Source: an uncultured Candidatus Saccharibacteria bacterium (GTDB lineage Bacteria > Patescibacteriota > Minisyncoccia > Phycocordibacterales > UBA9973). Taken from it: a stretch of DNA of 63,778 nt. The notes under the pieces were generated by a model. The model was given only the letters and a program-made list of their open reading frames with translations, had not been told where the DNA came from and ran no database searches. Below are positions 5,996 to 60,361 of this stretch, in pieces. Position 1 is the first letter of the stretch, and each line of letters opens with the position of its first letter. Both the position numbers and the translations under genes were made by a program. Location of the stretch: assembly GCA_964475655.1 (NCBI GenBank), contig CAYYXE010000002.1, positions 1-63,778 of the forward strand, read 5' to 3'.

Positions 5996-6056
5996 GGACT
6001 CACGACTTGCTTGACTTTTGGTAAAAAGTCAGTAGTGTAGAGCAAAACTTTGCTAC

Positions 6057-6326: not shown

Positions 6327-6372
6327 GAAAATCCTGCGTATTTATATGCAGGATTTTTGTTATAGTAGCGGT

Positions 6373-7095: not shown

Positions 7096-7149
7096 GTTGG
7101 CTATTTTGCAATCTGACTGAAAGTGATTTAGATAATAGAAAATTGTGTT

Positions 7150-7497: not shown

Positions 7498-7578
7498 ATA
7501 CTTATTTTTTATTTGAATGAATTTGTTTTAAATTACCATATAATGCAATTAAGTCAAATCGATGCTATAGTAGTCTCT

Positions 7579-8376: not shown

Positions 8377-8380
8377 GTGC

Positions 8381-8749: not shown

Positions 8750-8754
8750 TACCT

Positions 8755-9633: not shown

Positions 9634-9644
9634 GTATCTCTAGT

Positions 9645-12113: not shown

Positions 12114-12120
12114 TACCTAC

Positions 12121-13017: not shown

Positions 13018-13074
13018 CGCGAACCCAATTACCCGCATACTGTGCGGGTAATTCGTGTATCTGCGTGATACACT

Positions 13075-16602: not shown

Positions 16603-16605
16603 TCT

Positions 16606-17214: not shown

Positions 17215-17243
17215 TTTATATCTTGATAGGGTACAATAGATGC

Positions 17244-17645
17244 ATGCAGTTTAAGGTACCGCAATTTATCGACATCGAAGACAAAGTCTTTGGGCCGTTT
17301 ACGTTTAAACAATTTCTCTACCTTGCGGGTGGGGCAGGGCTTTTGTATCTTTCATTCAAATTGCTACCGCTCATCATTGCACTCATCATAGGACCTGCGC
17401 TTGGCGGACTTGGTCTTGCGCTTGCATTCTTTAAGTACAACGATAAGCCGTTTGTCAATGTGCTCCAGTCCTTCATCCGTTACTACACGCACTCCCGTCT
17501 CTATCTGTGGCACAAGCAGGATCCCAAAGCACCCAAGAAATCCGTCCCCGAAGCAGCTGCATCAAGCGCGCGTGGTACACTGACAGAGAGTAAGCTCAAG
17601 ACCCTCTCATGGAGTCTTGATGTCATCGACCCCAACAAACAATAG
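17244..17645 (+). CDS. PrgI/TcpE-family small membrane protein (VirB3-like role)
   Basis: MQFKVPQFIDIEDKVFGPFTFKQFLYL followed by two TM helices, the characteristic PrgI-family N-terminus. Lies directly upstream of the VirB4 genes. Confidence 0.65.
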   Translation: MQFKVPQFIDIEDKVFGPFTFKQFLYLAGGAGLLYLSFKLLPLIIALIIGPALGGLGLALAFFKYNDKPFVNVLQSFIRYYTHSRLYLWHKQDPKAPKKSVPEAAASSARGTLTESKLKTLSWSLDVIDPNKQ

Positions 17646-17647
17646 CT

Positions 17648-18283
17648 ATGGCAACCCTTGGCACACCCGCCCAACAATTTGTTCCGATCCAAGAAGTCAG
17701 AGACGGCATCATGGTCATGAAAGACGGCACGCTCGCGATGGCGGCACTGGTTTCTTCGATCAATCTGTCACTGAAGAGCTACGACGAGCAGCGCGCGACA
17801 CTCATGCAGTTTCAAAATTTCCTCAATACGCTTGATTTTCCGATCCAAATCGTTATTCAAAGTCGCCGCTATGATATCCGGCCATATATACTCACTCTCG
17901 AAAACCGCCTCAAGCAGCAAACAGAGCCCTTGCTCCAAGTACAGACCCGCGAATACATTCAATTTATCCAAAAGTTTACCCAAGATGTCAGTATCATGCG
18001 CAAAAGCTTCTTTGTGGTCGTACCGTACATCCCTCCCATCTTGAGCCAAAAGCAGGGCTTGGGCAAAGTACTTTCGTTTTTGAACAAAAAGCCTGCAGCC
18101 ACACAAAGCGTCACCGACTTTGAAGAACAGCGCACCCAACTCGAGGAGCGCATGAGTGTCGTAGTACAAGGCCTTACGCGCGTAGGCCTCCGGGTAGGGC
18201 AGCTTGGTACCGAAGAAGTGATTGAGCTTTTGTACAAAACATTCAACCCAGGTGACACCATGACACACGCAAATGCAGTGTAG
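17648..18283 (+). CDS. stand-alone VirB4/TcpF N-terminal-like module
   Basis: FVPIQEVRDGIMVMKDGTLAM...SINLSLKSYDEQRATLMQFQNFLNTLDFPIQIVIQS resembles the N-terminus of Gram-positive VirB4-type ATPases (IPy..m..DGI...DINY.L..e...if..w..fLN). Confidence 0.45.
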   Translation: MATLGTPAQQFVPIQEVRDGIMVMKDGTLAMAALVSSINLSLKSYDEQRATLMQFQNFLNTLDFPIQIVIQSRRYDIRPYILTLENRLKQQTEPLLQVQTREYIQFIQKFTQDVSIMRKSFFVVVPYIPPILSQKQGLGKVLSFLNKKPAATQSVTDFEEQRTQLEERMSVVVQGLTRVGLRVGQLGTEEVIELLYKTFNPGDTMTHANAV

Positions 18284-18301
18284 TGCTGTATACTATAGAG
18301 A

Positions 18302-20110
18302 ATGGGTCTCTTTGGATCAAAGCAAAAAACAGAAGAAAAGACGCTTCCAGTCCTTCCCTCTGAAGTACATGAGTGGGCAACTATGGAGCTCGCGGACAAG
18401 ATCGCGCCCTCTGCGATCGAGATCACTCCCAAATCACTTCGTATCGGCGACAAGATCGTGCGCACCTTCTTTGTGATCTCATACCCCCGCTACCTCACCG
18501 ACAACTGGTTTACCCCCATCATCAATCTCGACAAAATCTTTGATGTCGCGATCTATATCAACCCGATCGAAACCGCCGAACTCCTCAAGCACTTCCAAAA
18601 GAAGATTGCGGAGGTTGAAAGCCAGATCATTGTCCGCCAACAGAAGGGACTTGTCCGCGATCCCATGCTCGACACTGCCTTCCAAGATCTCGAGGAGCTC
18701 CGCGACAACCTCACCCAGGCACAAGAAAAGATGTTTGATATCGGCTTTTATATCTCGATCTATGCCGACAGTGACCAAGAGCTCTTCAGGACCGAAAGCG
18801 AGATCAAAAGCATGCTCGAAGGCAAAATGATCTACATCAAACCGACCCTCTTTCAGGAAGAAGATGGGTTTAAGACGGTCGTCCCCCTTGGTACTGACAA
18901 GCTCAGCATCACTCAAAAGCTCAACTCCGAACCCATCTCGAGCATGTTCCCCTTTGTATCATTTGATCTCACCGGAGACGAGGGGATACTCTATGGGGTC
19001 AACCGCCACAACTCATCCCTCGTTATCTTTGATCGCTTTTCGCTCGAAAACTACAACTCCATCATCTTTGCAAAGTCCGGTGCGGGTAAGTCGTACGCGA
19101 CCAAACTTGAGATCATTCGCACGCTCATGTTTGATACTGACGTGATCGTCATCGACCCAGAGCGCGAGTACGAGTACTTGGCAGAGGCAGTAGGGGGGCG
19201 ATATTTCAATATTTCACTCTCATCTGACAACCACATCAACCCGTTTGACCTGCCGATCCCACGCGTCGACGAATCCCCTGCGGATGTGCTGCGCAGCAAC
19301 ATCATCAATCTCGTAGGGCTCTTTCGTATTATGCTTGGCGGCCTCACCCCCGAAGAAGACTCGATTATTGATCGCGCGATCACCGAGACCTACTCACTCA
19401 AAGACATCACTGCAGAGAGCGACTTCACCTCAATCGAGCCGCCACTTCTCTCAGACTTTGAAATGGTGCTCGGCGGCATGGAGGGGACTGAGAGTATCTT
19501 GCAGCGCCTGACCAAATACACACACGGCTCGTGGGCAAACTTCATCAACCAGCCGACAAACGTCGACATCAACAAAAAGTTTATTGTGTTCTCGGTACGC
19601 GACATGGAAGATGACCTCAAACCTGCTGCGATGTACATCGTCACACATTTCATTTGGAATGCCGTGCGCAAAGAGCTCAAAAAGCGTCTGCTCGTCGTGG
19701 ATGAGGCATGGTGGATGATGAAAAGTGACGACACTGCAAGTTTCCTGTATTCAATTGCAAAACGAGGCCGTAAGTACTACCTCGGTCTCTGTACAATCAC
19801 CCAAGACGTGGGAGACTTTATGAAGAGCCCGTACGGTGTCCCGATCGTCACCAACTCCTCGATCCAGCTCCTGCTCAAGCAATCCCCAAGCACCATCGAT
19901 GTGCTCCAAAAGACGTTCAACCTCACCGATGAAGAAAAGTTTCTCCTGCTCGAAAGCGGCGTAGGGGAAGGGATTTTCTTTGCAGGACTCAAGCATGTCG
20001 CGATCAAGATCATTGCCTCATACACCGAAGATCAGATCATCACCAGTGACCCATCCCAAGTCATCTCGATCCGCAATGCAAAGAAGGAGTTTAGTGAACA
20101 GCGTACGTAG
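18302..20110 (+). CDS. VirB4/TraE/TcpF-family type IV secretion ATPase
   Basis: 602 aa with Walker A FAKSGAGKSYATK, Walker B LLVVDEAWWMM (DEAW) and a conserved upstream segment RTFFVISYPRYL. Confidence 0.85.
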   Translation: MGLFGSKQKTEEKTLPVLPSEVHEWATMELADKIAPSAIEITPKSLRIGDKIVRTFFVISYPRYLTDNWFTPIINLDKIFDVAIYINPIETAELLKHFQKKIAEVESQIIVRQQKGLVRDPMLDTAFQDLEELRDNLTQAQEKMFDIGFYISIYADSDQELFRTESEIKSMLEGKMIYIKPTLFQEEDGFKTVVPLGTDKLSITQKLNSEPISSMFPFVSFDLTGDEGILYGVNRHNSSLVIFDRFSLENYNSIIFAKSGAGKSYATKLEIIRTLMFDTDVIVIDPEREYEYLAEAVGGRYFNISLSSDNHINPFDLPIPRVDESPADVLRSNIINLVGLFRIMLGGLTPEEDSIIDRAITETYSLKDITAESDFTSIEPPLLSDFEMVLGGMEGTESILQRLTKYTHGSWANFINQPTNVDINKKFIVFSVRDMEDDLKPAAMYIVTHFIWNAVRKELKKRLLVVDEAWWMMKSDDTASFLYSIAKRGRKYYLGLCTITQDVGDFMKSPYGVPIVTNSSIQLLLKQSPSTIDVLQKTFNLTDEEKFLLLESGVGEGIFFAGLKHVAIKIIASYTEDQIITSDPSQVISIRNAKKEFSEQRT

Positions 20111-49954: not shown

Positions 49955-50491
49955 ATGAAAAAAACACTAATCAACACTCGCGGTTTGCAAAAAGCAAACC
50001 AGCATATCCTTGCATTTATTGATAAGTATGAAAAAAGAGTACTACCTCTTCCGTTTCTTTCAAATCAATTAAACAGCGAAACATTTTTCACACCACTTAG
50101 TGAGTCAAGCTTTTTTTCACAACATGATTGTAAGCATCCTATTTTAAAGGATCTTACTTTTTTGGGACAAGCACTTACGCTGCTTTTAAATGAAAAAGGA
50201 GTGATCCCCTCAAGAATCATATCTCTACAGGCTTTGTATAATCTCCAGCGGCAAAAGCTAAAAGAATACGAAAAACTGCAGAAGCATTTTGTTGAGCTGC
50301 CAGTTGGGGATATTCTCCACTATTCCTTAATTGAGCCGGTATTGATCGTTCACAACATTTCTCCTGAAACAGTTTTTGGCAATCCTGTGTATAAGAAACT
50401 TTGTAAAGAAGACCCTATAGTTGGAAAATACAATCACATTTGTCATTTCAAATGGTGTATTGAAAACTACAAAGAAATTCTCAAAAACTAA
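49955..50491 (+). CDS. hypothetical protein (AT-rich orphan)
   Basis: 178-aa ORF, visibly AT-richer than its flanks, followed by a hairpin terminator. Confidence 0.45.
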   Translation: MKKTLINTRGLQKANQHILAFIDKYEKRVLPLPFLSNQLNSETFFTPLSESSFFSQHDCKHPILKDLTFLGQALTLLLNEKGVIPSRIISLQALYNLQRQKLKEYEKLQKHFVELPVGDILHYSLIEPVLIVHNISPETVFGNPVYKKLCKEDPIVGKYNHICHFKWCIENYKEILKN

Positions 50492-50498
50492 AAGCGTA

Positions 50499-50524
50499 AC
50501 TGCCCCACATTCGGGGCAGTTTTA
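50499..50524 (+). terminator. intrinsic terminator between convergent genes
   Basis: Stem actgcccc / ggggcagt, loop acattc, then TTT. Confidence 0.55.
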
Positions 50525-51067
50525 CTTTTTCAACAACTGCAGCGCTTGCGTAATTTGCTTCTCAAGTACAACTTCAGGATCGATCGACGGAAGCACTGCA
50601 CGGATGTCGTGCTCTTTGAAGCCGAGCGAGAGGAGGGCTTCGACGAGGTCGCTTCCGCCGGCGTGTTCGGTAGCGGCAAATCCAGCGAGTTTGTCTTTGA
50701 GGTCGATGATGACTTTCTCAGCGGTCTTTTTGCCGATGCCAGGGACGAGCGAGACTGCCTTTGCATCGCCTGTGCGGATCGCGCGGACGAGCTCGCTCAT
50801 CGGATACATCGTGAGCATGTGGAGCGCCGTCTTGGGTCCGACACCAGAGACCGATATGAGATGCATAAAGAGCGCCTTCTCCTGCATGTCCTGAAACCCA
50901 TAGAGCTCGTGGGCGTCTTCGCGAATGACGAGATGCGTGTGCAGGAGTGCAGTGTCGCCGATAGCGTAGATGCCAGGGGTGTAGACGGCATAGGCGAGCG
51001 CTCCTGTGTCGATGACGACGCCCCTTTCAAAGAGGTCGACGACGGGTCCCTGGATGCGTGCAATCAT
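50522..51067 (-). CDS. ruvA: Holliday junction DNA helicase subunit RuvA
   Basis: MIARIQGPV..., an HhH pair (ISVSGVGPKTAL, VPGIGKKTAEKV) and a short domain III. Confidence 0.9.
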   Translation of the reverse strand: MIARIQGPVVDLFERGVVIDTGALAYAVYTPGIYAIGDTALLHTHLVIREDAHELYGFQDMQEKALFMHLISVSGVGPKTALHMLTMYPMSELVRAIRTGDAKAVSLVPGIGKKTAEKVIIDLKDKLAGFAATEHAGGSDLVEALLSLGFKEHDIRAVLPSIDPEVVLEKQITQALQLLKK

Positions 51068-51135
51068 GCACCTATCATAGCAGATCAGGGGACTCTCTTG
51101 CGAAAATGACCCGGTATGCTATAGTAGCGTCCTAT

Positions 51136-51396
51136 ATGCCAATCACACGAAATGCAAAAAAGGCCCTCCGCGTCGCTAACCGCAAGCAGGCAGTAAATGC
51201 TCGCACCAAGAAAGCGCTCAAGGAAGGCGTTAAGTCAATCGAAAAGCTCGTAAGTGCAAAAAACTGGAAGGATGCCAAGAAGTCTCTAGCAGAAGCGTAC
51301 AGTGCGATCGACAAGGCTGCAAAGAAAGGAGTGATCAAAAAGAACACTGCAAGCCGCAAAAAAGCTCGACTCTCTCGAATGAGCAAAGAAAAGTAA
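51136..51396 (+). CDS. rpsT: 30S ribosomal protein S20
   Basis: MPITRNAKKALRVANRKQAVNARTKKALK..., a basic helical protein of 86 aa. Confidence 0.9.
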   Translation: MPITRNAKKALRVANRKQAVNARTKKALKEGVKSIEKLVSAKNWKDAKKSLAEAYSAIDKAAKKGVIKKNTASRKKARLSRMSKEK

Positions 51397-51401
51397 GTAA
51401 G

Positions 51402-51424
51402 ACCACCCGACAAGGGTGGTTTTG
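51402..51424 (+). terminator. rho-independent terminator
   Basis: Stem accaccc / gggtggt, loop gacaa, then TTT. Confidence 0.6.
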
Positions 51425-51437
51425 CTATACTTACACA

Positions 51438-51710
51438 ATGTTATATGAATTCTACGGAGAAGAATGTCCGCACTGCCAGCGGATGCGCGAACTCACGACC
51501 AAGCTGATGAAGGAATACCCCCAGGTGCAAATACAGCGCAAGGAGGTCTGGCACGATAAGCGCAACATGGCGTTTATCAAGGAATGCGACAAAGGGGATG
51601 AGTGCGGCGGCGTGCCGTTCTTCTTCAATACTGAGACCAAGAAGTGGCTGTGCGGGGAAGTGGAGTATGAAGAGATCAAGAAGTGGGCAGGGGTGGATCG
51701 TCTTGACTAA
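51438..51710 (+). CDS. small thioredoxin/glutaredoxin-like protein (CPHC)
   Basis: MLYEFYGEECPHCQRM... 90 aa with a Trx-fold pattern. Confidence 0.7.
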   Translation: MLYEFYGEECPHCQRMRELTTKLMKEYPQVQIQRKEVWHDKRNMAFIKECDKGDECGGVPFFFNTETKKWLCGEVEYEEIKKWAGVDRLD

Positions 51711-51728
51711 ATAGGGTTTGGGGGTAGT

Positions 51729-52106
51729 ATGAGGGGAAAACGTACATGTATCACTATGGGAAATAATTACAGTGGGTTTTATTCTGGAAAACCAAAGCAG
51801 AAAAGCAGTGCTTGGATGTATGTCGGTGCTATTCTCGGTGCACTAACTATTATTATCGGATTTTATTTTTGGTTAGGTATCAAAGGTATTGTGGGGATTG
51901 CAATAATCGGTATGCTGATTGTAGCTGCATTTGAATACCTTCAAAAAAATAAGCCAGAAGTAATTCTAAAAGAAACGAGACAAATAATACGTGAAATAAT
52001 AATTCTTATTGTATTTTTTGTTCTTACTATGGTCTGGAAAAATCACCAAGCAAAACATGCTGAACAACCACCACACAAGGTGGTTGTTTTTGTGTACCCT
52101 GGGTAG
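51729..52106 (+). CDS. small membrane protein, hypothetical
   Basis: Three hydrophobic helices. The 3' end runs through a terminator hairpin (52063..52092). Confidence 0.4.
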   Translation: MRGKRTCITMGNNYSGFYSGKPKQKSSAWMYVGAILGALTIIIGFYFWLGIKGIVGIAIIGMLIVAAFEYLQKNKPEVILKETRQIIREIIILIVFFVLTMVWKNHQAKHAEQPPHKVVVFVYPG

Positions 52107-52178
52107 TCAGCACCTCCCCCTGTGGTCACGAGTCACTAAGTATAATTGTTCGCTTCGCTCCAATTCTACAAAGTGCTC

Positions 52179-53161: not shown

Positions 53162-53286
53162 CTTGCCTTTGATTGTATTCATATGCATGAGTATACCAAA
53201 TATGTTGGCGGGAGTGGTTAGATGTGTTCAGAACTATAGACTGGAAGGAAATAAAAAGCAATTTGGAGTATTCAGGCATAGGAAGA

Positions 53287-54054
53287 TTACTTGTTGCCGT
53301 TTAGCCATAAATCATCGATATGGGTTTTTGCAGTGCTGTAAGCAGAACCTTCGACTTTACTAATACTCGATGCACGGTTTCCGAGCTCGGCAAAACTATG
53401 ACCCGAATGATAGATAGCATTTTCATCAACAACTATGTACCTGTCATGGGCGGTTATATTGTCATAATACTTCAACTCAATTTTATTGTTAGGATATTGT
53501 GCTGACAGAGCTTTTACATCAGTTGAAAAAGTACCGAAGAACTTATTGTTATTTTTTTGGGTCAGAAAGCAAAGTTCCATATTTGGGTTATCAATGATAT
53601 TTAATTCAATAACTTCCAAGATTTCAGGTCTCAAATAAGCATCCACAAGCAACAGCTTGGTTGTTGCTTGATTGAAAATAGACCGAAGTATTCTACGTCC
53701 CTCGAAAGGAGAGTTTTCAGTAATAAAAATATCTTTACGAGGGATATGGCTTCCCAGTGTATTTATAAGTTCGGCGGTTATATTCAAAAGGGGTTCAAGT
53801 GCTTTTCTTGCTGTACCTTCCTGTACAAAAAAGCCAGTTTTGGGCATATTAATCCATGTAGGAACTGCACGTTCAATTTTGAGCTGTTCCACCTCTCCAA
53901 AATTAGGTTTCAGTTCAATCAACCTCCTTTTGCTTTCTGAAACAACCTGATGTTCTCTTTCTGATTTTAGTAAACCCTCTTTTGCCAAATCCAAAGCCGT
54001 CTGAATACCTGTATGTATTTGGTTCAGCTCATTTAGTGTTTCTTCTGGGGTCAT
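53287..54054 (-). CDS. hypothetical protein with a C-terminal HxR-x4-D (degenerate HKD/PLD-like) motif
   Basis: 255 aa, AT-rich. N-terminal helical region and a C-terminal AHDRYIVVDENAIYHSGHSF segment. Confidence 0.45.
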   Translation of the reverse strand: MTPEETLNELNQIHTGIQTALDLAKEGLLKSEREHQVVSESKRRLIELKPNFGEVEQLKIERAVPTWINMPKTGFFVQEGTARKALEPLLNITAELINTLGSHIPRKDIFITENSPFEGRRILRSIFNQATTKLLLVDAYLRPEILEVIELNIIDNPNMELCFLTQKNNNKFFGTFSTDVKALSAQYPNNKIELKYYDNITAHDRYIVVDENAIYHSGHSFAELGNRASSISKVEGSAYSTAKTHIDDLWLNGNK

Positions 54055-54099
54055 ATAGGGAAATCATACTGGAAGTAATGCTAAGAGTGAAGAACCTTT

Positions 54100-54513
54100 A
54101 TGGAAAAATCCTATAGTAATGTAATGTATACTAATACTATGAAGACCTTATCCTCAAAAATAGGACTTTTCATCCTCATAAGTTATATCTGGATTGCCGT
54201 TTTTGGGCTCCTCCAACTCTCTCACATGTCCCATATGGGTCATGGAATGCACCCGTGCCCGTTCATGGTCGGACAACAATCGTTGTGTCCGATGGATACC
54301 GCTCATCACCTTAGCTCATGGCAAACCTTTTCGACCGCTGTATTTCCTGCTATTGAGCTTCTCGTTCTTGCAGTTCTTACTGTTGTAGTATTCAACGTAT
54401 CGTTATTTTCCCCGCCACGGTTTTCATATACAAAACAACGGCAACAGCGTATTCCTATTCCGTTATATCAGACACTTTTTTCAAGGGGTATTCTTAACCC
54501 AAAGGCACCATAA
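54100..54513 (+). CDS. membrane protein with a His/Met/Cys-rich loop, hypothetical (metal-related?)
   Basis: LSHMSHMGHGMHPCPFMVGQQSLCPMDTAHH lies between hydrophobic helices. Confidence 0.4.
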   Translation: MEKSYSNVMYTNTMKTLSSKIGLFILISYIWIAVFGLLQLSHMSHMGHGMHPCPFMVGQQSLCPMDTAHHLSSWQTFSTAVFPAIELLVLAVLTVVVFNVSLFSPPRFSYTKQRQQRIPIPLYQTLFSRGILNPKAP

Positions 54514-54554
54514 AAAACTTTAGCAAATTATTAACTTTAATTTATCTAATCTTT

Positions 54555-54959
54555 ATGGAAAACAAAAACAATGTTACAGGTATCGTTATTGTAGGAATAG
54601 TAGGCATTTTTATTGGTTGGCTTATTTGGGGACATGCAAAACCACAACAGGCGATGCAGACCATGCCTGGTATGGCACACATGATGCCAGACGGCACGAT
54701 GATGGGCGGAAATACCGATATGGCTTCGATGATGGCAAGCATGAATGCAGGACTCCAAGGAAAGACAGGGGACACCTTTGACCAAGAGTTCCTTGCAGAA
54801 ATGATTGTGCACCACCAAGGAGCAATTGATATGGCAAAGCTCGCACTAACCAATGCGAAACACCAAGAAATCAAAGACCTTGCACAAGCGATTATCTCTG
54901 CTCAAACAAAAGAGATAGGCGAAATGAAGCAATGGCAAAAGAATTGGTATAACCAATAG
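54555..54959 (+). CDS. DUF305-family protein with a Met-rich N-terminal region
   Basis: DQEFLAEMIVHHQGAIDMAKLAL...HQEIKDLAQAIISAQTKEIGEMKQW, preceded by MQTMPGMAHMMPDGTMMGGNTDMASMMASM. Confidence 0.8.
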   Translation: MENKNNVTGIVIVGIVGIFIGWLIWGHAKPQQAMQTMPGMAHMMPDGTMMGGNTDMASMMASMNAGLQGKTGDTFDQEFLAEMIVHHQGAIDMAKLALTNAKHQEIKDLAQAIISAQTKEIGEMKQWQKNWYNQ

Positions 54960-54967
54960 ATAGAAAC

Positions 54968-54993
54968 AAAAAGCACCCGAAAGGGTGCTTTTT
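54968..54993. terminator. bidirectional intrinsic terminator
   Basis: aaaaagcaccc gaaa gggtgcttttt. Confidence 0.7.
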
Positions 54994-54994
54994 G

Positions 54995-55180
54995 TTAATG
55001 CTTTGGATGCCGCTCAAGGAAATCCGCAATCATTGCTTTTTGTTTCTCAATAAAATCTGGTTGACCATGTTCTTCAAGGTATTTTCGTAAGAAACCAACT
55101 TCTGCTCGAAGTGCCATAAGTATTCCTTTGTCTTCACCAAAACGTTCAATAAGTTCTTTTACGAAATCTTGATATGTCAT
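54995..55180 (-). CDS. small hypothetical protein
   Basis: 61-aa helical ORF downstream of the 55203..55634 gene. Confidence 0.35.
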   Translation of the reverse strand: MTYQDFVKELIERFGEDKGILMALRAEVGFLRKYLEEHGQPDFIEKQKAMIADFLERHPKH

Positions 55181-55202
55181 TTGAGGATTTTACCACGGGG
55201 CA

Positions 55203-55634
55203 CTAATTGTAGTCCTCAACACTCATAGTAAAGCTGCCCATTGTGTTTGCTTCGATATAGTACTCACCACTGCCGTAGGCAACGGTCTCATCTTTGGTAG
55301 ACCCCGCAGTATTCATGATGACAGTTGGGATTTTGCTATCGAGTTTGTACATATACGCCTGACACATATCACCCTTACAATCGTATTTAATCTTGAACCT
55401 GTCGCCAGTAACAGTAAATGGTTCTGATTTTTTGATACCGTTCCCAGAAAAACTAAATACTTGGTGGTAGGTTTTTGTTGTCGAAGTTTGTACCACTGGT
55501 TCCTTCGAAGTTGTACTTGATGTAGTAGATGTTTTACTACTGCCCATGTTACTGATAATCAAAAGCAATACGATGATGATACCTGTAATGCCGTACCATC
55601 TTTTGTACCAAGGTTTCTTTATTGTTTCATTCAT
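55203..55634 (-). CDS. membrane-anchored or secreted small beta-rich protein, hypothetical
   Basis: 143 aa with an N-terminal TM (GITGIIIVLLLIISNM) and a Ser/Thr linker. Confidence 0.5.
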   Translation of the reverse strand: MNETIKKPWYKRWYGITGIIIVLLLIISNMGSSKTSTTSSTTSKEPVVQTSTTKTYHQVFSFSGNGIKKSEPFTVTGDRFKIKYDCKGDMCQAYMYKLDSKIPTVIMNTAGSTKDETVAYGSGEYYIEANTMGSFTMSVEDYN

Positions 55635-55790
55635 AAATCTCTTGCTGTTTTAATCCCTCGCATAGGCATACAAAAAGCCCTTAGCCAGGCGGTAACCACG
55701 GAAGTGGCACCCATACCCGTTTCCAGGTACGACAGCAAGAGTGACCCTGACTAAGGGTTCTTTATACTCTTGCTGATTTTCGACCATATC
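55635..55790 (-). promoter_or_regulatory. candidate switch-like 5' leader of the 55203..55634 gene
   Basis: On the minus strand CAGCAAGAG occurs twice (plus coordinates 55767..55775 and 55639..55647, the latter 5-13 nt before the ATG). Its complement CTCTTGCTG (55733..55741) lies between them. A second alternative pair is CCCTTAG / CTAAGGG. Confidence 0.3.
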
Positions 55791-55903
55791 CAGGGGTTGC
55801 CCAATGGGGTTAGGTCTCTAATAAATTGTTTCGAAATCGAGCCAAATGGCTTGAAGTAAGTATATTGTTTTATGAGGTAATGTAAAGTAAAGTAAAGCGA
55901 TAT

Positions 55904-56698
55904 ATGCGAACGGAAACAGGCAAAATCAAGGATGTGCTTGAAAGGAAAGTGGAGCTAGTGCGAGATAGTCGGCACCACAAAATGTACTACCAAGCTGTAA
56001 TGGACTATCACGAGTATATTTGCAGCTCCAAGGAGCTAACCCCAATTTTGAAAAAACTGATTGATAGTGACAAAATATCGCCAGTGTATTTGAGAGACAT
56101 CTTCAGTGATTTTTTGATTATCCAGGATTTGAAATATGATGTACCGACTGTCCATCACTATCCCAATTTTTATACACCCGAGATTGAAGCAAAGTATAAG
56201 CTAATGAAGCATCTAGCAGAGCTTGCTAAGAGTGAATATGATGAAATCAATACTCCAAATAAACTATTTTTTGACCCAAATACACCAGTCATTAAAACGC
56301 AGAGAGATGAGGAGTATTTTTACACACAGAAACTGCATAACGACATTATTGAGTTACTCAATGAGCCAGGCGATACAGACGATGTGTCACAGCCTGTATT
56401 TGACGACCGTACCTGTACACTCCATTTTCAAAACGAAGCTATAGTCATATCTAAGAAGCAAGAAAGCGACCCGCATAAGCTCATGAGGACAATTTTCAAA
56501 GATACAAGTAAGGTTTGGGCAAACGATGAAATACTCGAGGATTGGGGCTATGATTTTGGTGAAGAAGTATCAGAAGGCAAGATATATCAAGCAGGTAAGG
56601 CTGCAAATGAAAAGATTGCCCAGAGTACAACAATCAAGGATTTCTTGGACGTTACCACCAAATCGGTAGCCATAAACAAGAAGTATCTCGCTATGTAA
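55904..56698 (+). CDS. hypothetical protein (element-borne)
   Basis: 264-aa ORF with no family recognised, followed by a 9-bp-arm palindrome (56702..56721) and a terminator. Confidence 0.5.
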   Translation: MRTETGKIKDVLERKVELVRDSRHHKMYYQAVMDYHEYICSSKELTPILKKLIDSDKISPVYLRDIFSDFLIIQDLKYDVPTVHHYPNFYTPEIEAKYKLMKHLAELAKSEYDEINTPNKLFFDPNTPVIKTQRDEEYFYTQKLHNDIIELLNEPGDTDDVSQPVFDDRTCTLHFQNEAIVISKKQESDPHKLMRTIFKDTSKVWANDEILEDWGYDFGEEVSEGKIYQAGKAANEKIAQSTTIKDFLDVTTKSVAINKKYLAM

Positions 56699-56744
56699 AA
56701 AGTTTACAAACTTTTGTAAACCAACAATTCATTACCCTGAAGGG

Positions 56745-56763
56745 AACCCCTTCGGGGGTTTTT
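56745..56763 (+). terminator. rho-independent terminator
   Basis: aacccc ttcg ggggtt followed by TTT. Confidence 0.6.
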
Positions 56764-56940
56764 ATGTCTGAAGGTATTCCTCAAAAAGAAATACTGGATT
56801 GGTCGATACAAGACCTATCTGAAACAGAGCGGAATAACCTGCTCGGGTTTTTCGCGTTGCTTGTCAAAATTGATAAACGACTAAATCCTCATCTCTATGC
56901 TCGACACAGTAATCCTGACAATACCGAGGGGGTCGTATAA
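56764..56940 (+). CDS. possible small ORF (58 aa), hypothetical
   Basis: ATG directly after the terminator. It overlaps the Rep gene start in another frame and is absent from the ORF track (<60 aa). Confidence 0.2.
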   Translation: MSEGIPQKEILDWSIQDLSETERNNLLGFFALLVKIDKRLNPHLYARHSNPDNTEGVV

Positions 56941-58015
56941 GCTCAAAACTGATGCGTTTACCCCAAATGCCAACATACTCAAGATGTCAGGTAACTATCT
57001 TTTGAAGTGCGTAAATAACCCAACTAGTGCAGACAAGAAAGATGGCAACTATCGCCCTCGATTGACCCTGATGAAAAGGATGACAAGAAAAGGTGATGAA
57101 ATACCGCTCAAAATAGAGTTCTCTGTTGCAAAAATGCTGCATGGAAATAATGTCGATGAGGTTGAAGAAGATGACTTCCATAAAGTGGTCATAGCACTTC
57201 ATGAAGCGATGATTGAAATGAGTGTGTATGTATCGACTGAAGATTTACAAAATGCATCAGTATCAGCGTTTCATCCATCCAAAAACATCGAGCTTGCGAA
57301 TGGTTATACCTCAAGTTTCGTTATTACCGAGTTACATAAGATTGATGTCAGTAAAAAGATGGACTTGAACCGCGACAGTTTCAGAAACAATGGACACTCG
57401 CTTCAGTTCTATACCAACTCGCACTCGTTGGTTGTGTACGACAAAGTGCAAGACCTGAAAAAGCCAGAGAAGCGCGCAATGGATAAAGACCAAAACCCGC
57501 TTCAGTTATCTCTCTTTGAGACGCTTACCAAAAAAGAAAAGAAAGAAATACTTCGCATTGAAGCTCGGCTTCCAAAGAAGGTAAAAATGAATGCGGTTTT
57601 GAAGAAATTGAAGTTCCCAGAAAATCCAACCTTCAAACAAATCTTCAACAAGGAGCTCTGTCAAAAAGTGCTTCTCGACTATTGGGACGAACTCATATCA
57701 GGTAAAAATCATTTTTTGTTCGATATGGAAAGTAGCCCAACAAAGACGCTTGAAGCAATCTTCAAGGACAACCCTCATATAAGCCCAAAAGAGGCACTGT
57801 ATCTCGTAGGACTACGAGTGATGAGTAAAGAGGGTATACGGACAACAAGAGCGATTGTAGAGCGATATGCAACCACTCGTACCTGGTATCGGATGAAAGA
57901 GGATTTGAAGCTCTTGGACAAGATTTCTGGAAAGACAACCCATGAATGGGTACAACAGATAAAAGACGAACTGGAAAGATTTACGACTTATAAATTAATA
58001 AATACAAAAACATGA
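56897..58015 (+). CDS. rolling-circle-type replication initiation protein (phage gene II/X - CRI / Rep_trans-like)
   Basis: N-terminus MLDTVILTIP resembles the MIDWLTL.IP starts of this family. Internal ...HSLVVYDKVQDLKK resembles the conserved (r)vYdK..e motif. Confidence 0.55.
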   Translation: MLDTVILTIPRGSYKLKTDAFTPNANILKMSGNYLLKCVNNPTSADKKDGNYRPRLTLMKRMTRKGDEIPLKIEFSVAKMLHGNNVDEVEEDDFHKVVIALHEAMIEMSVYVSTEDLQNASVSAFHPSKNIELANGYTSSFVITELHKIDVSKKMDLNRDSFRNNGHSLQFYTNSHSLVVYDKVQDLKKPEKRAMDKDQNPLQLSLFETLTKKEKKEILRIEARLPKKVKMNAVLKKLKFPENPTFKQIFNKELCQKVLLDYWDELISGKNHFLFDMESSPTKTLEAIFKDNPHISPKEALYLVGLRVMSKEGIRTTRAIVERYATTRTWYRMKEDLKLLDKISGKTTHEWVQQIKDELERFTTYKLINTKT

Positions 58016-58158
58016 ACACTAAACAAGAAAAGGAAATTATGAAGGATATGGAAAAGGTCTTCCAAAAGATGTACCAATTTCAGCTTTCTGAAAACGTTAG
58101 AAGAGCCATGAAAATTAAAAAAGAAAGGTCGTTGCATGTAAAGAAAAGTAAAGTATAA
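58012..58158 (+). CDS. possible small basic ORF (48 aa)
   Basis: ATGA overlap with the Rep stop codon. Lys-rich and absent from the ORF track. Confidence 0.2.
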   Translation: MNTKQEKEIMKDMEKVFQKMYQFQLSENVRRAMKIKKERSLHVKKSKV

Positions 58159-58165
58159 TAAATAT

Positions 58166-58339
58166 ATGGAAAAGGACTTCTACACAGCTAAGGATTTAGC
58201 CGATAAACTTGGTCTTAATATCATGACTATTTATCGCTATATTGATGCAAAAAAGCTCAAAGCATACAAAATCGGTAAAGAATACCGCATAGCAAAGTCG
58301 GATTTTGATGCATTCTTGAAAAAGGTAAGCACTAAGTAA
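58166..58339 (+). CDS. excisionase-family helix-turn-helix DNA-binding protein
   Basis: 57 aa. YTAKDLADKLGLNIMTIYRYIDAKKLKAYKIGKEYRIAKSDFDAFL matches the excisionase/MerR-type HTH pattern. Lies directly upstream of the recombinase. Confidence 0.65.
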   Translation: MEKDFYTAKDLADKLGLNIMTIYRYIDAKKLKAYKIGKEYRIAKSDFDAFLKKVSTK

Positions 58340-58343
58340 CACT

Positions 58344-59816
58344 ATGAAAGCAATCATTCTAGCCCGAGAAAGTGATAAAAATCAGGACAGTAATGATGCC
58401 CAACTTTCCCGCATTCTTGAGTATGTCCGAGCAAAAGAGCTTGAAGAATGGAAAGTCATCAAGCTCAAGGAAAGTTCAACAAAGGGCTATCGAACAAAGT
58501 TTCAAGAGATTATTGAAATAATCAGAGCTTCAAAAGAAACTGTCGCAATAGTGGTCGATACAGTCGACCGACTACAGAGAGGTTTCAAAGAAAGCGTTGT
58601 TTTTGATGAACTACGAAGAGAAGGAAAGGTAGAGCTTCATTTTTACCGAGAAAACCTTGTCATCAACAAGAAATCAAACAGTGCTGACATTATACGTTGG
58701 GATATGGGCGTAATGTTTGCAAAGAGCTATGTCCTACAACTAAGCGACAACCTCAAACGAAAGCATGACAAGATGCGAGAGGATGGGGAACTCATTACGG
58801 CACCACCTATCGGCTACAAGAGTATTTACAACGACAATCCATTACGGATAAGAAGAATTGATGTAGTCCCTGATGAAAAGGCGCATTTCATCGTAAAGAT
58901 TTATGAAGAGTATGCGAAAGGCGATGTATCAGTCGCTACACTTGCAGACCGAATGTACGACATGGGTTTCAGAAGCAAGGCAAACGGCAAAGTAAATCAC
59001 GCAATGATTTATAAAATCCTGAACGATAGCTTCTATTATGGTTACGCATACTCACGAAATCATGACTTGCGGTATCGCCATAAGTACAAAGCAATAATCT
59101 CAAAAGAACTGTTTGATAGATGCCAAGAGGTAATGGCTCGACACAACAAAGTACCGACAAAATACGCTGCTAAACCTTTTATGTTCAGAGGTTTGATTGT
59201 ATGTGCTAAGTGCGGAGGTGTTGTAGGTGGTCAGCTCAAGAAAGGAAAGTATGCCTATTACAGTTGTTCTGGGTATAAGGACTGCAAAAGAGAGTATGTG
59301 CCCGAAGCGGAGCTTTTGAAACAGGTCTACAAGAAACTTGATGGTTTCAACATGTCGGACAAAGTGATACAGGAAATCACGGACGGCTTGAAAGGCATTG
59401 CCGAAAGTGAAAGTAATTTTTATCGGAAAAATATCAGCGTGCTCAAGATTGAACACGACAAATACCAAGAACGTATCAAAAAGATGTACGAGGACAGACT
59501 TGATGGACGTATTACGCCTGAAATGTATGACAAGTATTTGCGAGAGTATAAGGAAAAACAAGCCGAAATACTGAGTCAAATGCAAGACCATTCTGATGCA
59601 GACGAACAGTTCTATCTCACTGCAAATATAACGCTACGTATAGCTAAACAGGCAAAAGAAGTGTTTACCAGTTCTGAACCAGCAGAAAAAAGGCAACTTC
59701 TTGGTTTCCTACTTCAGAACTGTAGCTTAGACGGAAAAAAGCTAGATATTACAATGCGTTCTCCATTCAATCTGGTACTTAATTGTCCAGATGATATTAC
59801 TGTGCGGAGGCGGTGA
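58344..59816 (+). CDS. large serine recombinase
   Basis: Resolvase catalytic domain (AIILARESDKNQD with Ser10, VDTVDRLQR). Recombinase domain (PPIGY, IYKILNDSFYYGY). Zn-ribbon (CAKCGG...YYSCSGYKDC). Long coiled coil. Confidence 0.9.
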   Translation: MKAIILARESDKNQDSNDAQLSRILEYVRAKELEEWKVIKLKESSTKGYRTKFQEIIEIIRASKETVAIVVDTVDRLQRGFKESVVFDELRREGKVELHFYRENLVINKKSNSADIIRWDMGVMFAKSYVLQLSDNLKRKHDKMREDGELITAPPIGYKSIYNDNPLRIRRIDVVPDEKAHFIVKIYEEYAKGDVSVATLADRMYDMGFRSKANGKVNHAMIYKILNDSFYYGYAYSRNHDLRYRHKYKAIISKELFDRCQEVMARHNKVPTKYAAKPFMFRGLIVCAKCGGVVGGQLKKGKYAYYSCSGYKDCKREYVPEAELLKQVYKKLDGFNMSDKVIQEITDGLKGIAESESNFYRKNISVLKIEHDKYQERIKKMYEDRLDGRITPEMYDKYLREYKEKQAEILSQMQDHSDADEQFYLTANITLRIAKQAKEVFTSSEPAEKRQLLGFLLQNCSLDGKKLDITMRSPFNLVLNCPDDITVRRR

Positions 59817-59892
59817 GATTCGAACTCACGGTCCCATTACTGAGACTCTTGTTTTCAAGACAAGTGCAATAGACCAACTCTGCCACACCTCC
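59805..59892 (-). tRNA. tRNA-Ser (anticodon UGA), long variable arm
   Basis: Acceptor GGAGGTG/CGCCTCC (one G-U), anticodon stem CTTGT/ACAAG with loop CTTGAAA, long variable arm, T arm GTGAG TTCGAAT CTCAC. The 3' end overlaps the last 12 nt of the recombinase ORF. Confidence 0.85.
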
Positions 59893-59905: not shown

Positions 59906-60361
59906 TTATTTAATAAAATGTTCTTCGCAATGACAATTGGGACAAATAAGTTCAAGATTGCCTAGGTCGTTGTCATTACGATCCCTATTTTTGTGATGAA
60001 TCTGCAATATTTCGTATCGCTCATATCCACACCGCTCGCACACATTTCCTCGTTCTTGAAGCAATCTGGCTTTAAGGGCACGACCAGATTTTACCTTATC
60101 ATTTGGACTACCAATGCCATAGGTAATACCGGCGCGGTTTATATTAGCACAATGTCTGCTACATGTCTTCTTGTGAAGACCTGCAAGTATCGGAGTGCCA
60201 CAGATGATACAGGGGACCTCTTTGCGCTGAGAAGTAGCTGAACAAGTGAGACTACAAAACACCTGTCCTTGATTGCGTGCGATCTGGCTGGGTCGTCGAT
60301 AGACAGGTTTTGAACAGACAGCACAATTGGTATTGGGATTTCTCAAATACTTCTCAGGCAC
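59906..60361 (-). CDS. free-standing HNH endonuclease with N-terminal Cys-rich (Zn-finger-like) repeats
   Basis: CERCGY...HHKNRDRNDNDLGNLELICPNCH, plus three upstream CxxC-type clusters. Confidence 0.85.
   Translation of the reverse strand: MPEKYLRNPNTNCAVCSKPVYRRPSQIARNQGQVFCSLTCSATSQRKEVPCIICGTPILAGLHKKTCSRHCANINRAGITYGIGSPNDKVKSGRALKARLLQERGNVCERCGYERYEILQIHHKNRDRNDNDLGNLELICPNCHCEEHFIK

Follow-up and report, generated by a model that had tools for sequence, protein, structure and literature searches.

The 63,778-nucleotide stretch of DNA analysed here (the window) stems from an activated sludge (wastewater) 'candidate phyla radiation' (CPR) bacterium and carries, next to a gene for tRNA-Ser(UGA), a recombinase gene whose reading frame ends inside the tRNA. 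The locus raises the question whether this recombinase and the genes around it constitute a mobile element and, if so, how such an element integrates and replicates. We consider it probable that positions 53208-59807 are a 6.6-kb site-specific integrative element of a Patescibacteria/CPR bacterium that appears to unite chromosomal integration with plasmid-like rolling-circle replication. All six co-directional open reading frames described in an initial annotation of the sequence are present (Table 1).

Table 1. Features of the element and of its insertion site (coordinates refer to the window).
Feature	Position	Strand	Basis or remark
attL core GCGG	53208..53211		left end of element
P' arm, conserved left-end block	53212..53304	+	on the circle, last 30 codons and stop of the recombinase (EWLDVFRTIDWKEIKSNLEYSGIGRLLVAV*)
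255-aa PLD-like protein, candidate anti-phage defence gene (PDC-S05)	53287..54054	-	PADLOC PDC-S05, E 2.9e-19
137-aa His/Met/Cys-rich membrane protein and 134-aa DUF305 protein	54100..54959	+	DUF305, E 2.5e-19
61-aa ORF and 143-aa predicted secreted/membrane-anchored protein	54995..55634	-	ORF list
LOOT RNA (RF03000), leader of 143-aa gene	55691..55816	-	Rfam
264-aa protein	55904..56698	+	variable helical N-terminal part, conserved C-terminal winged-helix domain (alignments, AlphaFold)
Palindrome AAAAGTTTACAAACTTTTGTAAAC	56698..56721		candidate double-strand origin (nick/bind site) or operator
GC-rich hairpin and T-run, intrinsic-terminator-like	56735..56757	+	directly 5' of orf58 start
58-aa ORF (orf58)	56764..56940	+	overlaps rep start
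Rep, 372 aa	56897..58015	+	candidate catalytic Tyr181; homologues, motifs, fold
48-aa basic ORF	58012..58158	+	also in L016 and L124
57-aa excisionase-type HTH protein	58166..58339	+	HTH_17, E 1e-14; TIGR01764 'excise', E 4e-13
Dyad CGGTA-AAGAA-TACCG	58273..58287		centred on variant V breakpoint 58280|58281
Large serine recombinase, integrated form, 490 aa, ends ...ITVRRR*	58344..59816	+	Resolvase, Recombinase, Zn_ribbon_recom domains
attR core GCGG	59804..59807		approx. nt 71-74 of tRNA-Ser (our numbering)
tRNA-Ser(UGA)	59804..59892	-	intact attB-bearing host gene; ARAGORN

Boundaries, insertion site and cargo

The element comprises 6,596 bp with a 4-bp GCGG core at either end, and its GC content (39.6%, flanks 48-50%) bears out the earlier description of the region as AT-richer. 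The left boundary, which the initial annotation could not locate, is now placed at 53208: the conservation of six elements begins exactly at this position, with host-specific DNA to its left, and in a relative (L128) the homologous mscL flank passes into GCGG and tRNA-Ser. At the right end, contigs of variant strains terminate exactly at 59803|59804, the edge of the attR core; the Rfam call for tRNA-Ser(UGA) is 59805-59892 on the minus strand. The comparison with an element-free relative, proposed earlier as a check, is provided by L128/L129, in which synteny is identical on both sides and mscL directly adjoins tRNA-Ser(UGA)-ruvX; this locus therefore represents the empty site. Sequence comparison thus places the insertion point between the region upstream of mscL and the very 3' end of tRNA-Ser(UGA); GCGG is common to both junctions, and the tRNA is intact.

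Five other hosts harbor elements with 62-87% identical proteins at the same tRNA, while RuvX, tRNA_bind and PilM of element-bearing hosts are only 23-48% identical, showing that same-type elements have entered the same tRNA in hosts with far more diverged core genes. A related module is found at tRNA-Asn in a different context, beside PLD/glnA (L013). The recombinase reading frame stops inside an antisense tRNA in 44 of the 63 related loci with a complete recombinase and runs through the tRNA in 3 more, hence the overlap is not due to chance; the tRNAs whose 3' part these 47 frames reach or cross have nine identities. In six other loci attL is marked by direct repeats (13-19 nt) of the tRNA 3' end, and in the recombinase tree the tRNA targets are clustered (Ser clade support 100/100). 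A vertically inherited, non-mobile gene block with incidental tRNA adjacency would account for the occupied tRNA-Ser-ruvX site in several hosts, but it is scarcely conceivable given the empty site in a syntenic relative, the sharp and conserved ends, element identity far above host identity, and sister clades that use other tRNAs. The initial reading of the block as mobile, rather than universally syntenic, is thereby upheld. We found no published description of this large element family.

We infer that cargo makes up the left third of the element: a candidate nuclease for defence, two proteins for metal handling, and a secreted protein whose gene has a LOOT RNA leader; with the left end at 53208, the earlier suggestion that DNA from 53287 onwards could be cargo holds. 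The PLD-like protein also matches NCBIfam VPA1262_N_dom (E 9.5e-7, below cut-off) and the PLD-like Pfam family MIT_C (0.0025). The 137-aa membrane protein and the DUF305 protein are probably a metal-handling pair, and L016 likewise has a DUF305 gene (57% identity) between left-end block and Rep. The adjacent minus-strand genes (54995..55634) show weak PHROG matches to superinfection-exclusion families (E 1e-5 and 1e-4), confined to the N-terminal region. The LOOT RNA matches its Rfam model over the full length (67.3 bits, gathering score 46.4, E 2.5e-11) and was not found in six related loci checked. Genes outside the rep-HTH-recombinase module are wholly different between related elements; L013, for example, has a type I restriction-modification system.

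Recombinase and attachment sites

The assignment of the 490-aa protein as a large serine recombinase is corroborated by its three domains and by a match to phrog_95 'integrase' (E 6e-56); its N-terminus reads MKAIILARESDK, with Ser10. The stop codon TGA (59814-59816) lies inside the 3' acceptor strand of tRNA-Ser, and the antisense overlap, previously given as 12 nt, amounts to 12-13 nt. Because the 3' end of the recombinase gene contains attP, the C-terminal tail differs between the two forms of the element: the protein has 518 aa with a conserved 30-residue tail on the circle and 490 aa, ending in RRR, when integrated. The in-frame tail extension is found in six of six elements, with its first ~16 residues conserved, and the P' block is 80-87% identical in DNA sequence to its counterparts in L016, L018, L020, L021 and L022. 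Variable sites in the tail-coding block are distributed 8/4/6 over the three codon positions, and its conservation could reflect recombinase binding, not coding. Neither the reconstructed attP nor attB shows dyad symmetry (12-15 of 30), and conservation between hosts does not extend to the B arm of attB, both of which are unusual for large serine recombinases. The 57-aa protein, whose excisionase-type HTH was recognized earlier and is recovered by both family models, is a candidate recombination directionality factor; such a protein is encoded between Rep and recombinase in most of 83 surveyed loci.

Replication initiator and its neighbourhood

The 372-aa protein had been annotated as a gene II/X (CRI/Rep_trans-like) initiator. 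Since neither Pfam, PHROGs nor NCBIfam yields a Rep-family match for the window's own protein, which stays below every HMM threshold, its assignment rests on homologues, motifs and fold; together these place it as a remote member of the rolling-circle initiator superfamily G2P (Phage_CRI)/Rep_trans. The family comprises 1,248 clusters; PF05144 is matched by 14 of 76 diverse members and Rep_trans by 2 of 76, so that the claim survives HMM testing at the superfamily level. Homologues at 70-79% identity exceed the PF05144 gathering score across residues ~63-233. Three of the five published active-site motifs are clear and a fourth is only loose; Y181, K183, E222 and R224, all invariant, agree with motif III (YxKxxE, whose tyrosine sits on a beta strand) and with motif IV (W/LxRxE) as defined in PMC5714925, and Rep_trans motif II was not found in the protein. 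Its AlphaFold model (pLDDT 87) resembles predicted inovirus G2P proteins over the full-length fold (E 1.7e-8 to 2e-5). A Foldseek search with the model matched no solved Rep_trans structure, and profile searches against PDB sequences likewise gave no match.

The protein thus shares a superfamily with gpII (G2P) of filamentous phages and RstA of CTXphi (PF05144/PF02486; PMC5714925), including a candidate catalytic tyrosine on a beta strand in Y-x-K-x-x-(D/E) followed by (I/L)-x-R-x-E, but identity to the matched G2P models is only ~12-15%. CTXphi integrates via host XerCD, whereas this element encodes its own serine recombinase. Given that inoviruses have G2P as their hallmark initiator, that Inoviridae models give the best fold matches, and that the element encodes a number of small ORFs and membrane proteins, it might be taken for a filamentous (inovirus-like) prophage or its satellite with unrecognised structural genes. 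We regard this as very improbable: searches of Pfam and PHROGs gave no match to a morphogenesis ATPase of the Zot/pI type, a secretin or a coat-protein family, and a phage morphogenesis module is absent; the genes outside the conserved module differ between relatives; and only two weak matches turned up among 2.9 million IMG/VR contigs, with none among 50,697 phage records. The 264-aa ORF does not offer a capsid either, as structure prediction reveals a winged-helix DNA-binding domain, in line with the earlier remark that no capsid or other structural genes were seen; a Zot-like gene is likewise absent.

A MOB_T-type relaxase instead of a replication initiator would make this an integrative mobilizable element that borrows the conjugation pore of another. 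Rep_trans-family proteins act as relaxases in ICEBs1 and Tn916-type elements (PMC5714925; PMC6499999), and the element is small, with no transfer genes of its own detected in Pfam and PHROGs. Sequence and fold are, however, nearer to phage G2P (PF05144) than to Rep_trans, no coupling protein or type IV secretion gene was found in any surveyed locus map, and no transfer machinery was identified. We also know of no conjugation system described in CPR bacteria, and overall judge a relaxase unlikely. The two roles are not exclusive, because such relaxases drive rolling-circle replication too (PMC5714925).

Further genes and sites surround the proposed initiator. The AlphaFold model of the 264-aa protein (pLDDT 84.9) retrieves OmpR-family DNA-binding domains as the top ~30 Foldseek matches in the PDB (probability ~1.0, target TM 0.6-0.72; E-values weak, 0.04-0.6), suggesting an OmpR/PhoB/ToxR-like winged-helix DNA-binding protein and a candidate regulator or origin-binding protein. 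The 9-bp-arm palindrome noted earlier (GTTTACAAA-CT-TTTGTAAAC, 56702-56721) is kept at the same intergenic position in L013, L017, L018, L020, L021 and L022 and is a candidate double-strand origin or operator. The adjacent hairpin has 10 pairs followed by a T-run, with compensatory stem changes among relatives. In 12 loci a homologue of orf58 (E 1e-10 to 1e-20) directly precedes Rep; orf58 has no family match in Pfam, PHROGs or NCBIfam and is a conserved companion of Rep, possibly involved in copy control.

Proposed life cycle and known systems

In the proposed life cycle, the recombinase would join attP of the circle to attB at the tRNA end, cutting within GCGG, and the small HTH protein encoded directly upstream would serve as directionality factor for excision. 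The initiator would then use Tyr181 to nick the excised circle at an origin close to the palindrome that precedes the orf58-rep operon; rolling-circle replication would keep the circle from being lost and may provide single-stranded or multimeric DNA for transfer, and the winged-helix protein and orf58 would regulate this module. The predicted circle junction is ...ATTACTGT-GCGG-GAGTGG.... A search for the junction pattern recovered a contig (L100) with recombinase residues 389-511 unbroken across the core, and two others (L101, L102) are relics of a circle-type junction; circle-type (P-core-P') junctions thus exist in environmental DNA. As to the circular form that the initial annotation proposed to look for in metagenomes, neither excision nor a circle of this exact copy was found in the assembled contigs of four runs; such contigs drop rare variants.

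The copy in this genome might hence be an immobilised, effectively domesticated island that arrived as proposed but excises no more, its genes kept for their cargo or by inertia. The element lies beside mscL in 20 of 20 contigs encoding the exact MscL protein, and all sampled populations of the species have its left end there, so that it may be fixed; the four runs also yielded no empty-site joint. A widespread variant V, from two studies, has neither the recombinase nor the 3' end of the HTH gene: L004, L006, L009 and L010 depart from the window exactly at 58280|58281, with a 5-nt TAAAG microhomology, and runs X4 and X8 have a depth of 0 over the recombinase. In other hosts, relic junctions and tandem accretions at tRNA-Ser indicate that decay is common. 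On the other hand, recombinase, HTH, Rep, orf58 and orf264 are intact here, as they are in a sister strain of ~91% identity; in this copy the att cores at both ends and the P' block are intact as well, and contigs cannot show rare excision events. Immobilisation thus seems possible but rather unlikely, and we retain the reading as an integrative, replicating element.

Among known systems, the pSAM2/SLP1-type elements of actinomycetes are likewise small, combine a xis-int-rep-type module with integration at tRNA 3' ends, and replicate by rolling circle after excision through their own initiator. They use a tyrosine integrase, a long identity segment, an HUH-type initiator and an FtsK-like transfer protein, whereas this element has a large serine recombinase, a 4-bp core, a G2P/Rep_trans-type initiator, no recognisable transfer gene, and a CPR host. 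As in SSV1 of Sulfolobus and mycobacteriophage BPs, attP lies within coding sequence and tRNA integration alters the encoded protein; those systems use tyrosine recombinases, with the SSV1 integrase gene split in two and the BPs repressor truncated, whereas in this element the exchange affects no more than the 30 terminal codons of a serine recombinase, which are replaced by two. Firmicute IMEs and ICEs with Rep_trans-type (MOB_T) relaxases, such as ICEBs1 and Tn916, share the combination of a Rep_trans-superfamily tyrosine transesterase, a site-specific recombinase and rolling-circle replication of the circle (PMC5714925; PMC6499999). Tn5397, with the serine recombinase TndX, is another such element. 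Their transesterases, however, are true PF02486 members accompanied by a conjugation pore, whereas the present protein stands nearer to phage G2P and the element has neither a pore nor a coupling protein. Tycheposons of Prochlorococcus are also cargo-carrying and tRNA-site-specific, with their own replication module, and pile up in tandem at the same tRNA, leaving partial tRNAs and degraded remnants; tyrosine recombinases occur in 910 of 937, a minority has a large serine recombinase, and the replication genes are primases, helicases or polymerases (10.1101/2020.12.28.424599). The present family differs in having a serine recombinase throughout and a rolling-circle initiator. To our knowledge, the serine recombinases of Firmicute IMEs and ICEs target protein-coding or intergenic sites, not tRNA genes. 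The family described here is one that targets tRNA genes with serine instead of tyrosine recombinases.

Boundaries, mobility and distribution of the element

The six co-directional open reading frames proposed in the initial annotation are all present, and the AT-richer character ascribed to the region corresponds to a fall in GC content from ~50% to ~40% between 53.2 and 60.0 kb. The tRNA-Ser(UGA) placed near 59805..59892 is found on the minus strand, and the stop codon of the recombinase gene (TGA, 59814-59816) indeed lies within the 3' acceptor strand of this tRNA. The tRNA 3' end has no direct repeat in the window at up to three mismatches, which is expected because the recombinase is serine-type. 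The sole 9-mer, at 50770 within ruvA, was dismissed as a chance match, and a search for an inverted copy of the P arm (element DNA beside the attP core) as a marker of the left end gave nothing above chance.

Both ends were located by comparing the window with the six loci that have the most similar recombinases (L016, L018, L020, L021, L022 and L024). The tRNA-Ser(UGA) adjoins the element in all seven, and a conserved block is found 2.4-4.3 kb upstream of the rep gene in six of them, the exception being L024, whose contig begins only ~1.1 kb upstream of rep. The window copy of this block is situated between mscL and a 255-aa gene. Its conservation sets in abruptly at GCGG(G/A)AGTGGTTAGATG..., with the DNA further left being unrelated between hosts, and the same GCGG is found on the right side at the tRNA 3' end; these two positions therefore delimit the element (see table).

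As had been suggested initially, relatives lacking the element were compared, and they provide an empty site. Loci L128 (GCA_964474435.1) and L129 encode a RuvX 75% identical to that of the window. L128 shares with the window the genes to the left (polA, PEMT, dsbB, spoU, ruvA, rpsT, tRNA-Arg(gcg), a 151-aa gene and mscL) as well as to the right (ruvX, tRNA_bind, pilM, HAD, rluD-like, rplS, AI-2E transporter and VKOR). In L128, ~24 nt lead from mscL to ...AAATTT-GCGG-AAGCGGTGAGATTCGAAC, which is the tRNA-Ser 3' end; the homologous mscL flank of the window meets GCGG after 19 nt, where the element starts. At the level of sequence comparison, the L128 locus is proof of the element boundaries. 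Within the species itself, no empty site was found. Between tRNA-Ser and ruvX, and outside the element boundary, lies an HNH endonuclease gene. It is missing from L128/L129 and L016 and present in L018 (62% identity); the gene is an insertion independent of the element, possibly a homing-type gene.

Coordinates of features in and around the element (window positions; strand where reported)
Feature	Location	Strand	Details
Element	53208-59807		6,596 bp; 4-bp core (GCGG) per junction
PLD-like protein, PDC-S05 candidate defence gene			cargo
DUF305/His-Met-rich protein pair			cargo
Predicted secreted 143-aa protein			cargo; leader is the LOOT RNA
LOOT RNA (RF03000), full-length	55691-55816	-	67.3 bits; gathering score 46.4
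Candidate origin	56698-56760		candidate
Palindrome	56702-56721		9-bp arms
Rep gene	56897-58015		372 aa
HTH gene	58166-58339		57 aa
Breakpoint of variant V	58280/58281		contigs L004, L006, L009, L010, L105
Recombinase gene	58344-59816		490 aa
tRNA-Ser(UGA)	59804-59892	-	
HNH endonuclease gene	59906-60361	-	outside element boundary

Between the tRNA-Ser loci, the element proteins are 62-80% (Rep), 68-87% (HTH) and 72-81% (recombinase) identical; the host proteins RuvX, tRNA_bind and PilM are 34-41%, 45-48% and 23-33% identical, respectively. Locus L013 encodes a Rep 78% identical to that of the window, carries type I restriction-modification cargo, and has a recombinase gene ending 16 nt inside tRNA-Asn, beside PLD and glnA.

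The family was found in 267 of ~185,000 species representatives, and the best 80 of these 267 genome matches were surveyed together with the window, L013 and L016. The 83 loci, all with Rep, contain a co-directional downstream recombinase in 70 cases (complete in 63), the HTH gene and the recombinase being separated by 0-7.7 kb of variable cargo. The stop codon of the complete recombinases lies inside an antisense tRNA in 44 loci (median overlap 37 nt), and in 3 further loci the reading frame runs through the tRNA. Targets are tRNA-Asn (21), Ser (6), Gln (6), His (5) and Arg (2), as well as Glu, Trp, Asp and Leu (one each). In six non-Ser loci, attL is marked by a 13-19-nt direct repeat of tRNA sequence starting from the 3' end; it lies 2.2-5.1 kb upstream of rep, giving elements of 5.8-13.9 kb. 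On a recombinase tree built after removal of the last 25 residues, the tRNA targets cluster (27 changes versus a shuffled mean of 36.5; none of 200 shuffles was as low). The Ser elements form one clade with 100/100 support, and their hosts are labelled as several candidate phyla. These comparisons support and extend the proposed reading as a mobile integrated element, and the family is widespread in CPR bacteria. According to record titles, 12 element-bearing contigs (L025, L034, L035, L049, L053, L061, L071, L080, L082, L083, L087 and L088) carry MAG labels of Gammaproteobacteria, Bdellovibrionales, Promethearchaeota or Actinomycetota; these probably reflect mis-binning or mislabelling, not true host range.

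A predicted replication module and its companions

Initiators of the Rep_trans and Phage_CRI families nick a specific origin and form a 5'-phosphotyrosine link. The assignment of Rep to the gene II/X type draws on homologues, motifs and fold: with the threshold relaxed to E 10, searches of Pfam, PHROGs and NCBIfam give no match for the window protein itself. Homologues 70-79% identical to it match PF05144 (Phage_CRI, the G2P N-terminal domain) over residues ~63-233 with 25-30 bits, above the gathering cut-off of 21.7 bits. PF05144 is recovered in 7 of 37 close and 14 of 76 diverse family members, Rep_trans (PF02486) in 3 and 2, respectively, and no other family recurs among the diverse members. 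The family comprises 362 matches in a word-indexed search, or 1,248 clusters at 50% identity in an exhaustive profile search, almost all from Patescibacteria/CPR metagenomes.

Five active-site motifs are given for Rep_trans proteins in a review that cites their crystal structures (N' D, I RxD, II T/SxY/ExG, III YxKxxE, IV W/LxRxE), with the catalytic tyrosine on a beta strand and motifs common to M13 and Cri proteins (PMC5714925). Motif III of the window Rep reads Y181-D-K183-V-Q-D186, with Y181 and K183 invariant in the 76 sequences and a nearly invariant D186 in place of E. Motif IV reads I218-L-R220-I-E222 (E222 invariant, R220 nearly so). The acidic metal-binding residues D3 and D156 are nearly invariant, the latter within a motif I of the form (K/R)-x-D156, and no clear counterpart of motif II is found among the conserved columns. 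The AlphaFold model (pLDDT 87, pTM 0.86) places Y181 on a strand (177-182). In a Foldseek search the model matched five predicted viral proteins in full-length alignments (E 1.7e-8 to 1.9e-5, probability 1.0, TM 0.41-0.54), the one that is named being an Inoviridae G2P. No solved structure in the PDB was matched, Rep_trans structures included, and profile searches of PDB sequences likewise gave no match. A tblastn search of 72,556 plasmid and 50,697 phage records found no relative, and a search of IMG/VR gave only two weak matches. From the homologue matches, the conserved motifs and the modelled fold we conclude that Rep belongs to the G2P/Rep_trans superfamily as a distinct and remotely related branch and is a predicted initiator.

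The excisionase-type HTH protein is confirmed by matches above curated cut-offs to PF12728 (HTH_17; 54.7 bits, cut-off 27, E 1e-14) and TIGR01764 (49.4 bits, cut-off 28.8, E 4e-13), and a 58-aa ORF is a constant companion of Rep. For the 264-aa protein, whose N-terminal part is variable and whose C-terminal ~95 residues are strongly conserved, a capsid or Zot-like identity had been considered. Its model (pLDDT 85) instead points to a winged-helix fold: the top ~30 PDB matches are DNA-binding domains of the OmpR/PhoB/ToxR type (probability ~1, target TM 0.6-0.72, weak E-values). The protein is neither a capsid nor Zot-like. The palindrome AAAAGTTTACAAACTTTTGTAAAC is present as described. It begins at the last base of the stop codon of the 264-aa gene and close relatives keep its sequence; it is followed by a terminator-like structure, a hairpin showing compensatory changes together with a T-run. 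The LOOT RNA of the window is absent from six related loci.

The recombinase and its attachment sites

Large serine recombinases recombine attP with attB and require a directionality factor for excision, and their att sites show imperfect dyad symmetry around a very short core. The 490-aa protein was correctly recognized as a member: it contains the catalytic domain (PF00239, Resolvase; residues 3-148, E 2.8e-9, above cut-off) with Ser10 of the motif ARESDK as the nucleophile, the Recombinase domain (PF07508, E 1.7e-13) and the zinc ribbon (PF13408, Zn_ribbon_recom; E 5.2e-10), and matches phrog_95 over residues 1-484 (E 6e-56). In the six tRNA-Ser elements, only GCGG is common to both junctions; in other subgroups 13-19 nt are common to both ends and restore the tRNA end. 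The best dyad symmetry in the reconstructed attP and attB sites of the six elements covers 12-15 of 30 positions, less than is typical of such sites. The host DNA on the 3' side of the tRNA gene (the B arm) differs from host to host, conservation being confined to the tRNA half-site, and the right arms P' (element) and B' (tRNA end) agree at 11 of 25 positions plus the core. We also observed that public gene calls miss an intact 490-aa recombinase in the JGI contigs L123 (1340-2810) and L124 (7940-9410), perhaps due to the overlap of ORF and tRNA, and elements of this family may thus be under-annotated.

The attP site lies within the recombinase gene. When the right end of the element is joined to its left end, the recombinase reading frame continues in frame in all six Ser elements, so that the window recombinase has 490 aa in the integrated state (...ITVRRR, then stop) and 518 aa in the circle form (...ITVREWLDVFRTIDWKEIKSNLEYSGIGRLLVAV, then stop). 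Conservation of the added residues extends over the first ~16 (REWLDAFRTV[DN]WKE); like the rest of the circle-form tail, these lie beyond the generic recombinase profile, which ends at residue 486. In other subgroups the core is also inside the ORF and the integrated tail is encoded by the antisense T-arm (...QDSNL..., then stop); their circle-form tails are not conserved. Variable sites in the tail block are distributed over the codon positions as 8/4/6, without an excess at third positions. These counts are not decisive between coding constraint and constraint from a P' binding site, and we therefore confine our claim to the geometry, attP within the gene, and do not extend it to function.

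A joint reading, which we consider rather unlikely, combines a state-sensor role of the attP placement with asymmetric recognition of attB via the tRNA half-site. The circle-form enzyme with its conserved 30-residue tail (REWLDAFRTVDWKE...) would then be the integration-competent form, and the tail-less enzyme made from the integrated copy would have another directionality or stability; if true, integration-dependent switches would have a counterpart among serine recombinases. As to the second component, attB may be recognized mainly through the acceptor/T-arm half-site of the tRNA, which would account for the unconserved B arm as well as for the repeated change of target within a set of at least nine tRNAs.

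The predicted circle junction of the window element reads ...GATATTACTGT-GCGG-GAGTGGTTAGATG... JGI metagenomes were scanned for the junction TTACNNTGCGGRAGTGGNTAGATG, which is not expected in any integrated copy, and four contigs were retrieved. In L100, the reading frame for recombinase residues 389-511 passes without a break through the core and into the tail. L101 (~8329-8451) and L102 (~4486-4608) contain ~120-nt junction relics between tRNA-Arg(gcg) and tRNA-Ser-ruvX; in each, GCGG separates the final 14 codons of the recombinase from the tail block, and a recombinase gene is absent. The fourth, L099, was rejected as a chance match within an unrelated ORF. The sole possible origin of a P-core-P' junction is a circle or a concatemer. 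Rolling-circle replication would yield multimers, and an integrated multimer is a plausible source of the relics. The proposed metagenome search for the circular form yielded circle-type junctions in environmental contigs; the contigs of four runs showed neither a circle nor an empty-site joint of the exact window copy.

Proposed tandem islands and relation to known systems

The host is present in metagenomes from activated sludge, from wastewater and from freshwater. In runs X1 and X3, the contigs show the window form. Two other studies contributed runs X4 and X8, in which depth is zero over 58340-59607; the left contig ends at 58280 and the right one begins exactly at 59804. Strains of this variant V lack the recombinase as well as the 3' end of the HTH gene. 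In their place stand the terminal 66 codons of another serine recombinase (LSR2) and an island of ~10 kb, which encodes, among other proteins, a two-component system, a VTT-domain protein, an ABC transporter and DUF347 and whose right end adjoins tRNA-Ser at the same GCGG. At the breakpoint in the HTH gene there is a 5-nt microhomology (TAAAG), and the window site is a small dyad, CGGTA-AAGAA-TACCG. A break inside the HTH gene could be read as a nested insertion of a second element; this model is rejected because these strains lack the recombinase and the second island adjoins tRNA-Ser directly. The simplest reading of the contigs is that two elements stood in tandem at the tRNA and that a deletion at the TAAAG microhomology would have removed both recombinases. 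A sister strain of ~91% identity has the element intact.

Contig L007 contains the same island end, followed by GCGG and different, non-tRNA DNA (TGTTTGTTGGACAAAGTTCGAATGT), which may represent the island's own circle junction or another target site; L007 itself shows no terminal overlap and was rejected as a circle. Its second island (1-18935) encodes a 439-aa serine recombinase, a CBASS pair (CD-NTase and Cap15), an S24 peptidase, an N6/N4 methyltransferase, a two-component system and an ABC transporter. In L023 (14525-15698), ~1.2 kb of DNA containing a 133-aa ORF separates tRNA-Ser from the right end of a Ser-clade element and is another tandem accretion at this site. Positions 1-1740 of L124 are 99.4% identical to ruvA-rpsT of the window (50418-52157), but positions 1871-13213, from tRNA-Arg onward, only 90.7%, which suggests recombination between strains near the element locus.

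pSAM2-type AICEs are among the closest functional analogues. They combine a tyrosine integrase, an HUH initiator and an FtsK-like Tra protein, whereas the window element has a serine-type recombinase, a G2P-like initiator and no FtsK-like gene. ICEs and IMEs bearing Rep_trans also belong to the closest analogues (PMC5714925, PMC6499999). Tycheposons resemble the family in tRNA targeting and tandem accretion, but 910 of 937 use tyrosine recombinases and they carry primase/helicase modules (10.1101/2020.12.28.424599); the window element lacks primase, helicase and polymerase and has a putative rolling-circle initiator instead. It differs from an Inoviridae prophage in that none of its ORFs matches a Zot/pI morphogenesis ATPase or a coat protein in Pfam or PHROGs. 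A large family of serine recombinases at tRNA genes is unexpected, as targeting of tRNA genes is usually credited to tyrosine integrases (e.g. PMC4383910). A full-text literature search on Patescibacteria and serine recombinases found nothing related, and a second one, on attP spanned by a serine integrase gene, gave no relevant result.

The element is an integrative, predicted rolling-circle-type element. It is distinguished by a serine recombinase aimed at tRNA 3' ends, an attP in the recombinase's own gene and a divergent G2P-like initiator. To our knowledge, mobile elements of CPR/Patescibacteria are almost unknown and genetic tools for them very few. The family supplies serine recombinases paired with defined attP/attB sites in conserved tRNA genes, as well as a compact, predicted replication module native to CPR bacteria; together these could seed integration vectors or shuttle replicons. 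With one recombinase scaffold and many tRNA targets, it also constitutes a natural series for studying site choice by serine integrases. Finally, the element moves candidate defence and probable metal-handling cargo between distant CPR hosts, which bears on how reduced genomes gain accessory functions.
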